Counted from the first letter of the stretch, positions 10,674 to 62,514 are shown. The stretch: 64,000 nt of DNA from Candidatus Uhrbacteria bacterium (GCA_943359525.1 CALRHV010000001.1:82195-146194); one strand, 5' to 3'. Notes: generated by a model from the sequence alone, not told the origin. Translations and numbers: made by a program.

Positions 10674-10707
10674 GTCATCCTGAGCACAGCGAAGGATCTC
10701 TCGCAGG
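10674..10707. repeat. single arm of the GTCATCCTGA...CTCGCAGG hairpin-repeat family
   Basis: GTCATCCTGAGCACAGCGAAGGATCTCTCGCAGG; the same 34-nt motif recurs at 60786 and 62251. Confidence 0.75.
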
Positions 10708-10787
10708 AATCTGATCTTAGACGGGTTGTGAGATTAGTGTGAAAGGCAGGGAGTGCGGGTGCTGCGACAGAAAACGGTACCCTCTGT

Positions 10788-11080
10788 TTTTGAGGTTTTA
10801 GAACTGGGCAATAGAATACGTTCTGATCCTAAAATCGAGAAATAATGAAATCGATTTCGGATCTTCGCGATCGCCGATCGTAGACGGCATTATCGACAAC
10901 CTCGTCGATCGTAAATATCGACCATCGGTTTCTTAACGCGAAATGTTCGCATTACCAAAGACCCTGTTTGAAATTGAACACCCCCTCACTCTCCTCGCCC
11001 AACTCAGGCTCGTCGAGCGTCGCCGATGATGTCATTATTGCCAACACCTCCGTCACAACCCTCCAAAGATCAGGTTCATT
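10788..11080. repeat. copy 1 of a conserved ~270-nt duplicated non-coding element (candidate structured RNA), abutting the stop codon of the minus-strand ORF 11076..11657
   Basis: Aligns by eye at roughly 75% identity over ~270 nt with 51866..52130. Shared blocks include GGTTTTA.AA..GGC.ATAGAA, GAAATCGATTTC, CGATCG.AGACGGC, GATCGT.AATAT, CTTAACGCGAAA..TTCGCATTA.CAAA..CCCTGTTTGAAAT.GAA..CCCCC, and CC.CCCG.CACA.CC.TCCAA.GATCAG.TTCA ending at a TCA/TGA stop. Confidence 0.7.
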
Positions 11081-11657
11081 CCATTTTAAACGCCAAACGC
11101 TCGAGTCCGAAGACCCGAGCGCTGCGTACTCGCCGACCGTTGCCGACGAGGGTGATGAAGGGGCCTATGAAGTGCTCAGCGAGAAGCTGAGTGATCTCTT
11201 CCTTGGCTCCACGAGCGATGATGTCGAAGGGTACCGTGTGGCCTTCCGCGTTGATGACGGCGAATCGACAGCCTTCGTGACCGTGTTTCACTGCGATGAA
11301 ACGAGTCAGCACGGAGCCAGGCATCACCTGATCTTCACCGAACATCACACGGCGAGCCTCCTGCGGAATCGCGCCGAGATCGATGACGCTGAACTCCTTC
11401 CACACGAACTTCGCGAGGTAGGCGTTCCGGATCATGTTCGCGAGCGCAGGCCAGCCGGGCTTCGCGGTGACAGGCATGAGCGGGTCGCCACGGAGAGCCT
11501 GGGCGAAGCTCATGTCAGGCGCTCCGGAGAAGAGGCGGCTGTGAGAGACGGGAATACCGAGGAGTCGGCAGAGGGACAGGGGAATGAAGTTCACGTTTTC
11601 ACCAGGGAACGGGTTAATCGAACACTTTATAATAGCATATTTCCCAATAAAAAGCAA
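11076..11657 (-). CDS. hypothetical protein; strand assignment uncertain because an exact antisense ORF 10968..11660 (+) also exists
   Basis: The stop codon sits at the same position of the duplicated element as the topIB stop in copy 2. The C-terminal half looks like a globular protein. The listed start overlaps the pilD terminator T-tract, so the true start is probably an internal Met, e.g. MSFAQ near 11513. Confidence 0.35.
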   Translation of the reverse strand: MLFIGKYAIIKCSINPFPGENVNFIPLSLCRLLGIPVSHSRLFSGAPDMSFAQALRGDPLMPVTAKPGWPALANMIRNAYLAKFVWKEFSVIDLGAIPQEARRVMFGEDQVMPGSVLTRFIAVKHGHEGCRFAVINAEGHTVPFDIIARGAKEEITQLLAEHFIGPFITLVGNGRRVRSARVFGLERLAFKME

Positions 11658-11685
11658 TAATACGGCTAGGATTAGCCGTATTATT
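11641..11685 (-). terminator. rho-independent terminator downstream of pilD
   Basis: Perfect 13-bp stem AATAATACGGCTA-GGA-TTAGCCGTATTATT followed on the minus strand by TTTTTATTGGG. Confidence 0.7.
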
Positions 11686-11700
11686 GGAGGGAATCGTCGC

Positions 11701-12504
11701 CTACCCCAAAAGTCCGAAGTACCAGGAAACTACCGAGTTTCCAAAAAAGAGGGCGATGATGGTGCCGATGACCATGAAGGTTCCAAACGGGACGTGGCTG
11801 CGGAGGTCGCGGCGACGGAAGAAGATGAGGTAAATACCGAGAATGGCGCCGATGGCGTAGGCGGTGAGAAGGGCAAAGATGCCGAGCTCGGGGCCGAGGA
11901 GGAAACCCATCACCATCGCCAAGCGAATATCTCCCCCACCAACCCATGTTCCGCGAGAAGCAATATATTGCACTGCAAAAAATGATCCAAGAAGAAATCC
12001 GCCGAGCAGCATCGTCAACGGATCAACACCCATCACTGCGTTCAATGAAAGCGCGATGATCATTGCCGGAACAGAGAGACGATCCGGAATAATGCTCGCG
12101 CGATAATCGAACATGAAAATCGGCAAGAGCAGCATTGCAAGCAAGCCGTTGCGAAGGAACAACCCCATTGCATCTGATGCGTCGCGAGCGAAGTATGGGA
12201 TGTTCGAGTCTTGTGTAACGATTTGATACGCGAATCCCATGAACAAAAGCATCATGGCGATTTCAAGCACGGGATACTGCCAAGGAATCACGGTTTTGCA
12301 CGCACGACACTTTGCCTGAAGCACCAGATAACTCACCAGTGGAAAATGATCCTTGGCATGCATCGGCCTGGCGCACGTCACGCACTTTCGTCGACCAGCG
12401 GTAAATCGCAATCCATCTGGCGTGCGCAACATGAAAATGTTCACGAATGCTCCGCACACTAAGCCGAGAACTCCCGCAACCACGATGATAGGAAACAATG
12501 GCAT
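11701..12504 (-). CDS. pilD: type IV prepilin peptidase (A24 family)
   Basis: 267 aa; N-terminal tetracysteine zinc site CVTC...CRAC followed by polytopic membrane peptidase and methyltransferase regions. Confidence 0.85.
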   Translation of the reverse strand: MPLFPIIVVAGVLGLVCGAFVNIFMLRTPDGLRFTAGRRKCVTCARPMHAKDHFPLVSYLVLQAKCRACKTVIPWQYPVLEIAMMLLFMGFAYQIVTQDSNIPYFARDASDAMGLFLRNGLLAMLLLPIFMFDYRASIIPDRLSVPAMIIALSLNAVMGVDPLTMLLGGFLLGSFFAVQYIASRGTWVGGGDIRLAMVMGFLLGPELGIFALLTAYAIGAILGIYLIFFRRRDLRSHVPFGTFMVIGTIIALFFGNSVVSWYFGLLG

Positions 12505-12507
12505 AGA

Positions 12508-60773: not shown

Positions 60774-60785
60774 AATGCTATTTCC

Positions 60786-60869
60786 GTCATCCTGAACGAA
60801 GTGAAGGATCTCTCGCAGGTGATCCGGACTAACCTACGAGAGATTCTTCGCTACGCTCAGAATGACTGA
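60786..60869. repeat. family (ii) long imperfect inverted-repeat hairpin, copy B
   Basis: GTCATCCTGAACGAAGTGAAGGATCTCTCGCAGG-15 nt-CCTACGAGAGATTCTTCGCTACGCTCAGAATGACTGA. Confidence 0.85.
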
Positions 60870-60894
60870 GTTGAAACTCTGCGTAAAATAATTC

Positions 60895-62241
60895 CTAAAC
60901 CACCAGCGGCAAATTCCGCCATACCTTTTCGTCGCCACGCAATAACGACTCCACTCGGTACGCGCCATGCGTTGGTGCATTCGTAAATCCACTCCACGCC
61001 ATGCGTGCCAATGCGCCACTATCGATCCAATCGAACAGCCACTCATTCATGTACTGCGGCGCAAGGCCATCAGCGCCACCACCAACGTACGTTAACCATG
61101 CGCGATTGAAATCCTCCTGACTTCCAACAGTCGGCGCCATAATAATCGGAATCGCTAAGCCGGTGTAGAACGAAAGCTCCGACGGTTTGGTCCAAAGAAT
61201 ATCTGTCTTGCGCATCAGCGTCGCGAATGCCGAAAAATAATCCGGACGATTGTCTTCGAAAAGGATCGTCACCTTCCCCGCGCGCTTTGCACTCACCAAT
61301 CCGTCCAGCCGAATCTCGCGTTCAAAAAATTCATTCACTTCCGGTCGCGTTCCTGCAACAAGGTTTACGATGATTCGTCCTGCACGGATATCGGAAGCCA
61401 ATGACCGGAGAGCTAAAGCAACAAGCTCGCGCTGCGTTCCCGCACCGCCAACAGCAAACGTGATCGATGGCGTGGTTGGCTTGATTGCACAAAATGGCTT
61501 TCCAAATGTTGCGTCCAGAAGCGCATGCGCTTTTGCAACGAAATTTCCACGCGGATCAAGGTTGCACATGCGACGCTGCAAATCGGCTCGCACATATTCT
61601 GGCGAGTGCGCGCCGCCAATCGTTTCGTACGGTAACGGAAAACCCGTCAGCGTAATATTTTTTTCTTTGACGCCGTACAACTTTAAACGCTCAACAACGC
61701 GACCGGTCGGCGCCAAGTATTTGATTCTGCTTTTCTTTGGATTCAGCGGCACCCAAGCACGAGCAATGTCTGCATCGCAAAGAACAATGTAGATGTCTTC
61801 TGGATAATCGAGTTCCTCCGCGGCAAAGGCTGGGGTAAAGAATGTTGAAACGATTGGAAGTGGATTTTCCTTGAATCGCTTGATCAGGTCATGGCACATC
61901 CCCTGACTATGAATAAGCGCGTATGTTTGTCTAACTTGTAAACTCGGTTTCGATAAATCGCGCTTGGGATAGAACTCCGGAATACGCTGCATCTTATCCA
62001 TTAAACCGAACGTTGCCGATCCCAGAATTGGCACGTTCTTGAACCGCGACACAAATTCGTAGAAGCTTTTTCCCGTTTCCCAAAGTCTCCGTTCATGAGC
62101 CGGAATTCCCGGATAATCATTCGCAACCGTTACCTGTTTACCAGGAGCAAGGTGCCGCAACGCAAAAGCGGCCCGTTCATGGCCATAGCCCATATTGACG
62201 GCAACCACGTGCGCCAATGCTTTCCCCCTTTTTTCCTCCAT
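60895..62241 (-). CDS. GT-B fold glycosyltransferase (MGDG synthase/UgtP/MurG-like, GT28-like)
   Basis: N-terminal HVVAVNMGYGHERAAFAL motif; bracketed by direct copies of the family (ii) hairpin. Confidence 0.45.
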   Translation of the reverse strand: MEEKRGKALAHVVAVNMGYGHERAAFALRHLAPGKQVTVANDYPGIPAHERRLWETGKSFYEFVSRFKNVPILGSATFGLMDKMQRIPEFYPKRDLSKPSLQVRQTYALIHSQGMCHDLIKRFKENPLPIVSTFFTPAFAAEELDYPEDIYIVLCDADIARAWVPLNPKKSRIKYLAPTGRVVERLKLYGVKEKNITLTGFPLPYETIGGAHSPEYVRADLQRRMCNLDPRGNFVAKAHALLDATFGKPFCAIKPTTPSITFAVGGAGTQRELVALALRSLASDIRAGRIIVNLVAGTRPEVNEFFEREIRLDGLVSAKRAGKVTILFEDNRPDYFSAFATLMRKTDILWTKPSELSFYTGLAIPIIMAPTVGSQEDFNRAWLTYVGGGADGLAPQYMNEWLFDWIDSGALARMAWSGFTNAPTHGAYRVESLLRGDEKVWRNLPLVV

Positions 62242-62250
62242 ACTTTTGCA

Positions 62251-62331
62251 GTCATCCTGAACGGAGTGAAGGATCTCTCGCAGGTCATCCGAATACCCTA
62301 CGGAGATTCTTCGCTTCGCTCAGAATGACTG
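62251..62331. repeat. family (ii) inverted-repeat hairpin, copy C, directly 5' of the GT-B gene start
   Basis: GTCATCCTGAACGGAGTGAAGGATCTCTCGCAGG-...-CCTACGGAGATTCTTCGCTTCGCTCAGAATGACTGA. Confidence 0.85.
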
Positions 62332-62402
62332 AACGTGAATTGCGTCAATTCATTTAGGAGAAGTATAGCAAGAAAACTTTTACACGATTCACTTTCCGCA
62401 GC

Positions 62403-62514
62403 GTCATCCCCGCGCAGGCGGGGATCCAGAGTGTTCTGAATGAAGATCGTGTCAGTATTCATCCCAAAAATTCTTCAATGTATTCTGGATCCCCGCCTGC
62501 GCGGGGATGACCAG
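62403..62514. repeat. inverted pair of family (i) repeats with a 55-nt spacer
   Basis: GTCATCCCCGCGCAGGCGGGGATCCAG at 62403..62429 and CTGGATCCCCGCCTGCGCGGGGATGACCAG at 62485..62514. Confidence 0.85.

Follow-up and report, generated by a model that had tools for sequence, protein, structure and literature searches.

Two families of GTC-tagged hairpin repeats in an Uhrbacteria-like bacterium and their probable relation to Ssn single-stranded DNA nucleases

Repetitive extragenic palindromic (REP) sequences with a terminal CGTC tag (or TGTC/CCTC) are built of an 8-9-bp stem with AT at its start, a loop of 4-5 nt and a CCA tail; they form dimers, include intragenic copies and lack a transposase of their own (Di Nocera et al., BMC Genomics 2013, PMC3733652). 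Their CGTC-1 family includes Neisseria dRS3 and Rickettsia conorii RPE-6 (PMC3733652). It was not until 2025 that these long-puzzling CGTC/dRS3 repeats were given a candidate partner among proteins. In that year, Chenal et al. (Nat Commun 2025, PMC11893778) described the NTS, CGTCATTCCCGCGMAVGCGGGAATCYRG, a superset of dRS3, and the nuclease Ssn, which binds and cleaves single-stranded DNA (ssDNA) specifically, acts on the tagged strand only, and reduces Neisseria transformation. Three conserved nucleotides 5′ of the palindrome are needed for cleavage, and the C directly 3′ of it for binding (PMC11893778). The wider set of Ssn-related motifs (SRMs), 29 of them curated, which follow the degenerate pattern HGTCWYN(0-2)YYVSBRHN(0-5)WNVSBRGN(0-2)RNCYNB, is spatially linked to a ~94-aa single-domain GIY-YIG gene (cd10448), typically in the order hairpin-gene-hairpin (PMC11893778). 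Here we describe two dispersed families of tagged hairpins, A and B, in a 64,000-nt stretch of Candidatus Uhrbacteria DNA (GCA_943359525.1, CALRHV010000001.1:82195-146194; hereafter the window). Both are likely SRMs of a candidate phyla radiation (CPR) bacterium, and family B may represent a second Ssn specificity class.

Hairpin families A and B

Family A (GTCATCCCCGCGNAGGCGGGGATCCAG) has seven copies in the window. All seven had been located in a preliminary description made from the sequence alone, save that the copy placed there at 28191 begins at 28190. The 27-mer GTCATCCCCGCGCAGGCGGGGATCCAG has five window matches with at most one mismatch (0 expected from 100 shuffles), and the copy number is beyond chance, as had been claimed, with fewer than one copy predicted. 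The copies are:

62403-62429, + strand: consensus-perfect family A hairpin of the NTS/CGTC-1 type, left arm of an inverted doublet
62485-62511, - strand: family A hairpin, right arm of the same doublet (27-mer match)
28131-28175, + strand: family A hairpin, left arm of a second doublet (direct reading)
28190-28216, - strand: family A hairpin, right arm of the second doublet (27-mer match)
29209-29235, - strand: family A hairpin, in frame within secA (27-mer match)
38422-38448, - strand: family A core of an A/B hybrid (27-mer match)
45527-45553, - strand: degenerate family A hairpin with three mismatches

The inverted pair at 62403-62511 proved as described: its 28-nt arms (62403-62430 and 62484-62511) are 100% complementary and enclose a 53-nt spacer, or 55 nt between the 27-nt units as annotated. 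The doublet has a predicted fold of -40.7 kcal/mol (z -10.1). Its left arm is the sole window copy with the canonical C at -1, and shows 0 mismatches to both the published SRM pattern and the NTS consensus in its Y/R-relaxed form. In the second doublet, the left arm holds a 22-nt secondary hairpin, GCCTGTCCCCCGGAGGGGGAAG, nested within its loop. The in-frame copies reported earlier were also recovered. For example, the secA copy encodes VIPAQAGIQ within a flexible linker that immediately precedes the C-terminal SEC-C zinc motif. The degenerate copy supplies the last nine codons of the open reading frame (ORF) 44765-45556 (...LDPRFREDD*), and the TAA stop (45554-45556) follows directly after it. 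As a separate observation, a small hairpin of a further kind (core CCCCCTCCGGGG) occurs twice, in the loop of the A copy at 28131 (28146-28165) and in the mosaic between uvrA and folD (38262-38285).

Family A units read GTC / ATCCCCGC / GNAG / GCGGGGAT / CCAG and are predicted to fold as ssDNA, with a stem of 8 bp capped by a 4-nt loop (-9.7 kcal/mol, z -3.8). They combine the features of CGTC-1: an 8-bp stem starting AT, a 4-nt loop, a CCA tail, dimers and intragenic copies. The unit differs from the NTS consensus in one stem pair, where T-A has become C-G, a compensated change. This pair covaries across 165 independent matches (T-A 136, C-G 28, T-G 1, C-A 0). With the pair written as Y/R, five window copies lie within two mismatches of the NTS consensus; the published SRM regex is matched exactly by three of the seven, against 0.25 in shuffles. 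In a genome collection, the exact C-G variant was found in more than 100 species at least, among the matches listed. These matches span the Alpha-, Beta-, Gamma- and Deltaproteobacteria, together with Planctomycetes, Chloroflexi, Gemmatimonadetes, Rhodothermia, Elusimicrobia, Omnitrophota, Cloacimonadota, Bacteroidetes and one Moraniibacteriota CPR genome. Among 149 listed matches, conservation extended to positions that the search had not fixed: the loop G.A in 99%, A at +25 in 93% and C at -1 in 74%, where C is the first tag base in one of seven window copies. Flanks outside the 28-nt unit lacked conservation in the same 149. Judged by its sequence features, family A is a CGTC-tagged REP, of the class also named dRS3, NTS or SRM.

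Family B comprises seven arms, arranged as three ~80-nt palindromes and one solo arm. Its seed GTCATCCTGA is found at 10674, 60786 and 62251 (0.12 expected), the positions that the preliminary description gave. The pattern proposed there, with a 2-nt gap, matches nothing when taken literally because the true gap is 9 nt; a copy at 57171 had been overlooked, as had the ~80-nt inverted-arm palindromes of three elements. The family B features are:

10674-10707, + strand: solo family B arm, GTCATCCTGAGCACAGCGAAGGATCTCTCGCAGG, upstream of ligA
57171-57251, no strand assigned: family B palindrome of two inverted arms, cores ATGCT.. and ATTCT.. (repeat finding, direct reading)
60786-60866, no strand assigned: family B palindrome, arms ATCCT.. 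and ATTCT.. (seed match, repeat finding)
62251-62329, no strand assigned: family B palindrome, beside the A doublet and 9 nt before the start codon of DUF6938
38383-38421, - strand: B-derived remainder of the hybrid, with the inner scaffold ATCTCTCGTAGGTTAG followed by a second arm that has decayed

The two families share a frame, 5′-(H)GTC / AT-stem...stem-AT / C-3′, and every A and B arm has a stem closed by AT, preceded by GTC and followed by C. These shared bases are the ones with the greatest weight in cleavage and binding by SsnA (PMC11893778). Within this frame A and B have different cores. That of B, ATYCT-GA-RC-GNA-GY-GA-AGRAT, forms an interrupted 5+2-bp stem with tandem G.A and a 3-nt loop, followed by a CTC tail. 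A search by structure alone, for GTC, then a stem of 5 bp or more closed by AT, then C, picks out 14 window arms, where shuffled sequence gives 0.62. Two of these are probably chance matches in coding sequence, while the real copies at 28131 and 45553 escape the search. The shared termini first reported are present as GTCAT...ATC in all 14 detected arms, and repeat finding and direct reading bear out the broader description of two related dispersed hairpin families with common ends.

The structure of family B is read from covariation. Among 133 metagenome matches listed, the outer pair is C-G in 67, T-A in 64 and T-G in 2, and the inner pair is G-C in 112, A-T in 19 and mismatched in 2; an inverted partner lies within 70 nt of 29% of these arms. 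The arms of each window palindrome differ at the covarying positions, and each difference is compensated within its own arm, which argues that the selected unit is the arm hairpin and not the long stem between arms. Sequences flanking the palindromes show no conservation between copies, and no B arm matches the published SRM regex. Family B is a probable new specificity class. Represented by TGTCATYCTGARCGNAGYGAAGRATC, it may define a second class of Ssn ssDNA-nuclease specificity, set apart from the published SRM consensus as judged by the regex.

A and B are joined at 38383-38448, the one hybrid in the window (n=1). The chimeric copy noted there earlier consists of the A core (38422-38448) fused to the B inner scaffold ATCTCTCGTAGGTTAG and decayed arm (38383-38421). 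Its A core lies 10 nt downstream of the uvrA stop, in the gap between the convergent genes folD (+) and uvrA (-), where intergenic copies had likewise been described.

The ATGAC ends of two B palindromes coincide with -35-like hexamers in promoter-like matches, which are matches to consensus only:

57247-57275, + strand: promoter-like match, ATGACG-17-TATAGT, with extended TG
60862-60889, + strand: promoter-like match, ATGACT-16-TAAAAT

Partner genes, host and recent gain

Unbiased clustering of ORFs near A matches in other genomes returned mostly pseudo-ORFs translated from the repeats themselves. The sole recurrent real family was a ~95-aa GIY-YIG protein, with a match to the Pfam GIY-YIG domain. 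In 3.5 Mb of loci there are 19 such Ssn-like genes, of which 18 have A- or B-type arms within 350 nt. The typical cassette has an upstream arm in the orientation of the gene and an inverted downstream arm. Proteins flanked by A/NTS hairpins carry NGTLY and IKKWxRxWK (13/13), and those flanked by B hairpins carry IKGxxRxxK (5/5). One locus chosen through a B match serves as an internal control, as the KKW-type gene that it holds has NTS arms on both sides. How the loci were chosen does not affect the match between protein subclade and type of hairpin, which suggests from sequence that A and B each have an Ssn subclade of their own. CPR bacteria also have hairpin-ssn-hairpin cassettes, on contigs of Doudnabacteria (L248) and Daviesbacteria (L247). 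PADLOC and PHROGs returned no significant family for the Ssn-like proteins or for the DUF559 proteins described below.

Some cassettes are of mixed type. In L020 (1582-1606 and upstream of 1894) and L248 (3969-3999 and 4290-4317), the hairpins on either side of a single ssn gene are different variants: one is T-A, and its counterpart is C-G or has another loop. Several cores are thus probably accepted by one enzyme. In Rhodopseudomonas pentothenatexigens (L008, 5398-7118) the motifs form an array, in which a 310-nt unit is repeated 5.5 times in tandem and each unit holds two SRM-like hairpins.

The host is, by homology, an Uhrbacteria-like CPR bacterium (Patescibacteria): for both SecA and DUF6938 the closest homologues bear a Patescibacteria annotation, and the proteins of Candidatus Uhrbacteria GW2011_GWD2_52_7 are 69% (SecA) and 66% (DUF6938) identical to those of the window. 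Housekeeping genes of the window include ligA, recJ, lepA, uvrA, uvrB, folD, secA, murB/C, topoisomerase IB, pilM and prepilin peptidase. Repeat copies lie in the convergent folD/uvrA gap, between co-directional genes, at an ORF 3′ end and in frame in secA. At the gathering threshold, Rfam finds two tRNAs only in the window. As a side observation, type IV pilus genes (prepilin peptidase, PilM) are present together with recJ, ligA, uvrAB and topoisomerase IB (11701-14491, 14935-16656, 8623-10599, 52116-53120). We infer that these genes form DNA-uptake and ssDNA-processing machinery, fitting a CPR bacterium likely dependent on uptake.

The repeats extend beyond the window and are real. Of the two outcomes that would have spoken against the preliminary description, confinement to the window is excluded by copies in other genomes and metagenomes, and an assembly artefact by the region being 100% identical in four independent assemblies. 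Two shorter contigs of the same region break exactly at repeats, as would be expected of elements that are multi-copy in this genome. The flanks, 8.1 kb on the left (L470) and 3.4 kb on the right, extend the covered portion to ~75 kb. The left side adds one further SRM-like hairpin and the right side no further copy.

Comparison with syntenic relatives dates the expansion. L245 and L246 have SecA proteins 93% and 86% identical to that of the window, and L249-L251 have DUF6938 proteins 90%, 87% and 86% identical. Where the window has four arms, L245 and L246 have the SecA hairpin only; where it has eight, L249-L251 have none. The 60786-60866 palindrome sits in the window between a pyridine-nucleotide-disulphide oxidoreductase gene and the DUF6938 gene. 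In L250 and L251 these two genes abut with 1-2 nt between them, an empty site. The 121-nt window insert consists of 28 nt of filler, the 81-nt palindrome and 12 nt, and has no target-site duplication. The uvrA/folD spacer measures 0-33 nt in relatives versus 233 nt in the window, where it is a mosaic wholly absent from L245 and L246. Upstream of DUF6938, the intergenic region that holds 62251-62329 is 434 nt long in the window versus 86 nt in L250. Empty sites in close relatives at most insertion points indicate that the expansion is recent. The search for target-site duplications urged by the preliminary description found none at either the B insertion at 60786-60866 or the uvrA/folD mosaic.

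At the SecA site the core itself has changed. The linker junction CTCA/GTCAT carries an A core in the window, a B core in L245 and a third, compensated core (ATTGC/GCAAT) in L246. In a SecA tree built with the linker removed, the bearers of B (P0003), B' (P0007) and C (P0008) each stand beside A-bearing sisters; the P0008 protein has a unit of another family, C (SLPLLKGESEGV), where the window has family A. On this tree A is ancestral at the SecA site within the clade, and the placement of the other bearers points to three independent replacements at one site.

Explanations for the repeats

A and B are best explained jointly, and in our judgement probably, as SRMs or CGTC/TGTC-tagged REPs that are nicked by Ssn, derive from cassettes and have recently multiplied. 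The hairpin would fold once DNA is single-stranded, as in transforming DNA, the lagging-strand template or rolling-circle intermediates. Ssn, a ~95-aa single-domain GIY-YIG nuclease, would bind the folded hairpin, reading the stem sequence and the C immediately 3′ of the stem, and would nick that strand a few nucleotides 5′ of GTC. The repeats would originate as the inverted terminal hairpins of hairpin-ssn-hairpin cassettes. Remnants of these cassettes would persist as solo arms and, in the two A pairs and the three ~80-nt B palindromes, as gene-less inverted doublets. Two different Ssn subclades would be served by A and B, and the repeats have multiplied recently in this Uhrbacteria-like CPR lineage. 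The genome may encode a cognate Ssn, which would cut both A and B, or the repeats may be relics.

As for how copies spread, the lack of target-site duplications and the replacement of cores at fixed sites fit repair or copy-choice at ssDNA breaks better than cut-and-paste transposition. From the hybrid, the hairpin within a hairpin at 28131 and the SecA replacements, we infer overwriting at ssDNA lesions. In CPR bacteria A, B and the unrelated, DUF559-linked family C may overwrite each other at fixed sites, including the SecA linker. A fuller scheme would make B a second Ssn class paired with the IKG subclade and A, B and C interchangeable CPR cassettes, exchanged by nuclease-triggered copy-choice or gene conversion. 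We offer it tentatively, as possible but somewhat doubtful.

Several points weigh against assigning the repeats to Ssn. Neither the window, nor ~11.5 kb beyond its ends, nor 86 kb from close relatives yielded an Ssn-like gene. At -1, A or G stands in place of C/T in most window copies, and fit to the SRM regex is limited to three of the seven A copies and to none of the B arms. Nearest-neighbour folding predicts no stable ssDNA hairpin for a B arm alone, the structure coming from covariation. The rate of adjacency between Ssn-like genes and hairpins is biased because the loci were chosen for containing A or B. No spread mechanism has so far been demonstrated for Ssn. Lastly, Bertels and Rainey give ATTCCCGCGCAGGCGGGAATC as the Neisseria REPIN master sequence and tie it to Group 2 of the REP-associated tyrosine transposases (RAYTs).

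This last point leads to the view that the repeats are REPs or REPINs copied by a RAYT, a domesticated Y1 tyrosine transposase, with inverted doublets as the replicating unit. The A pairs and B palindromes do have a REPIN-like doublet architecture, and a single-copy RAYT could easily lie beyond the 75 kb covered. The tag is nonetheless GTC, not GTAG, and it is the Ssn-like genes that are flanked by A/B-type arms, in 18 of 19 cases. No transposase, RAYT or GIY-YIG gene is among the annotated window genes. Y1_Tnp is absent from the window, where queries with E. coli RayT and IS200 TnpA sequences gave one weak tblastn match, inside a thioredoxin gene on the opposite strand; precomputed Pfam calls for the 8.1-kb left side, the side for which they were consulted, include no RAYT or transposase. 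Across 244 loci (~1.4 Mb; 240 chosen through A/B matches) there is one Y1_Tnp gene, in L149, flanked by a different repeat and ~865 nt from a B arm. Di Nocera et al. (PMC3733652) likewise report no RAYT or IS200 gene flanked by CGTC repeats. The RAYT/REPIN explanation is weakened by these results, and we regard it as unlikely. A site-specific recombinase or IS110/Piv-type element, for which the hairpins would be attachment or target sites accumulating by repeated integration and excision, is less probable still, and we give it very little credence. In its favour, a report cited in PMC11893778 makes dRS3 a phage recombinase target, for the Neisseria filamentous prophage; both A-type and B-type hairpins are present on IMG/VR viral contigs, and the nesting of one hairpin in another at 28131 would fit. 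The annotated window genes include no integrase, IS110-type or other transposase, and the inserts are tens of nucleotides of hairpin and filler, not integrated elements.

The hairpins could instead act mainly as RNA, as terminators, stabilisers of mRNA 3′ ends or attenuators, and be repeated because the function is needed at many gene ends. Several copies follow closely on a stop codon or separate genes that are co-directional or convergent, the predicted stems of A and the doublets are stable, and the background given in PMC3733652 includes REPs of other bacteria that can stabilise mRNA. However, the terminator role raised in the preliminary description found no support: no arm is followed by a T tract or scored as terminator-like, the tails being CCAG or CTCTC, and classic terminators stand nearby at 57438-57470 and 63012-63045. 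The copy inside secA, 28 codons before the stop, cannot terminate transcription there. Termination does not call for loop bases, or for unpaired GTC and C flanks, that are conserved across phyla, and SsnA does not bind the RNA form (PMC11893778). An RNA-level role as the main explanation is thus improbable. A CRISPR array was also considered and rejected, in agreement with the first description, as copies are either 1-17 kb apart or in inverted pairs, and occur in both orientations. The hairpin stem does resemble type I-E CRISPR repeats, a likeness that we take to be superficial.

Other repeats, significance and known systems

Family C (CTCCCCCTTGAAAAGGGGGAG with CCCCCTCC extensions) brackets, as inverted repeats, the gene for a small DUF559 (PD-(D/E)xK-like) nuclease at 32233-32637:

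32250-32283: family C hairpin at the DUF559 gene
32638-32669: family C hairpin at the DUF559 gene
32706-32739: family C hairpin at the DUF559 gene

L246 has the same bracketing of its DUF559 gene (9520-9555 and 9910-9945). The architecture parallels hairpin-ssn-hairpin; no link between DUF559 and repeats was found in the literature searched. An inverted family C-like pair (41731-41811) lies in frame inside uvrB (40984-43158), and L246 has a different hairpin at the same uvrB site (about 940-1010). The window also holds a G+C-rich hairpin, ACGGCCCGGCTTCCCACGCGGGAGCCGGGCCGT, in two 55-nt copies (19221-19275 and 20087-20141) that are 93% identical, 866 nt apart and bracket a short segment. A ~230-nt direct duplication (10758-10991 and 51837-52070), 41 kb apart, is 73/73/83% identical over three segments, with no Rfam match and no obvious ORF; one of its copies adjoins the solo B arm.

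The class to which these hairpins belong, variously the CGTC-tagged REP, dRS3, NTS or SRM, is known already, as is its probable partner, the Ssn GIY-YIG ssDNA nuclease. What is new is the CPR host, which extends the repeats to an ultra-small, probably competence-dependent bacterium, along with a recent lineage-specific expansion that leaves clean filled and empty sites between close relatives. Also new are the occupancy of the SecA linker in frame, with repeated replacement of the core, and the evidence which suggests that B is the motif of an Ssn subclade of its own. If the B type is confirmed, it would provide a new pair of enzyme and site for ssDNA-cutting tools and a handle on how the repeats spread. 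For annotation, the hairpins explain spurious small ORFs (VIPAQAGIQ, WIPAFAGMT, VILSEAKDL, RFFASLRMT and similar), and they explain contig breaks in metagenome assemblies.

Among known systems, NTS/SRM is close to family A, which shares its 28-nt unit, GTC 5′ tag and 3′ C. Inverted arms also flank ~95-aa GIY-YIG genes in other genomes, CPR included. The present case differs in that 75 kb of this genome holds no ssn and the -1 base is mostly A or G. Family B, moreover, falls outside the regex and pairs with a distinct 'IKG' subclade. The host belongs to the Patescibacteria, a lineage unmentioned in PMC11893778, and has an in-frame copy in an essential gene, whereas the NTS of N. meningitidis is rarely intragenic (2%).

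The repeats resemble CGTC-1 in the (C/T)GTC tag, the A-T/T-A first stem pairs, the pairing in opposite orientation and the lack of an adjacent transposase. Doublets are found here as two of A and three of B, with heterodimers in B, and copies lie inside genes, DNA-repair genes included. The survey of CGTC repeats spanned five phyla and no CPR bacteria (PMC3733652), and B departs from its stated 8-9-bp stem and 4-5-nt loop, unless B corresponds to CGTC-3 or CGTC-4. REPIN-RAYT systems are alike in their short palindromes, which form inverted doublets, are intergenic and vertically inherited, and vary in number between lineages. They differ from the present repeats in tag (GTAG as against GTC) and in their RAYT, none being associated here; the present unit is also found across phyla, whereas REPINs are lineage-specific. 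Like the Rickettsia palindromic elements (RPEs), a palindromic repeat here stands in frame in an essential protein, in the SecA linker. Like the Neisseria intergenic mosaic elements (NIMEs), several repeat types make up mosaic intergenic tracts (uvrA/folD and 62242-62675). In contrast to both, the units described here are much shorter than RPE-1 and reside in a CPR host rather than in an alphaproteobacterial or neisserial symbiont.

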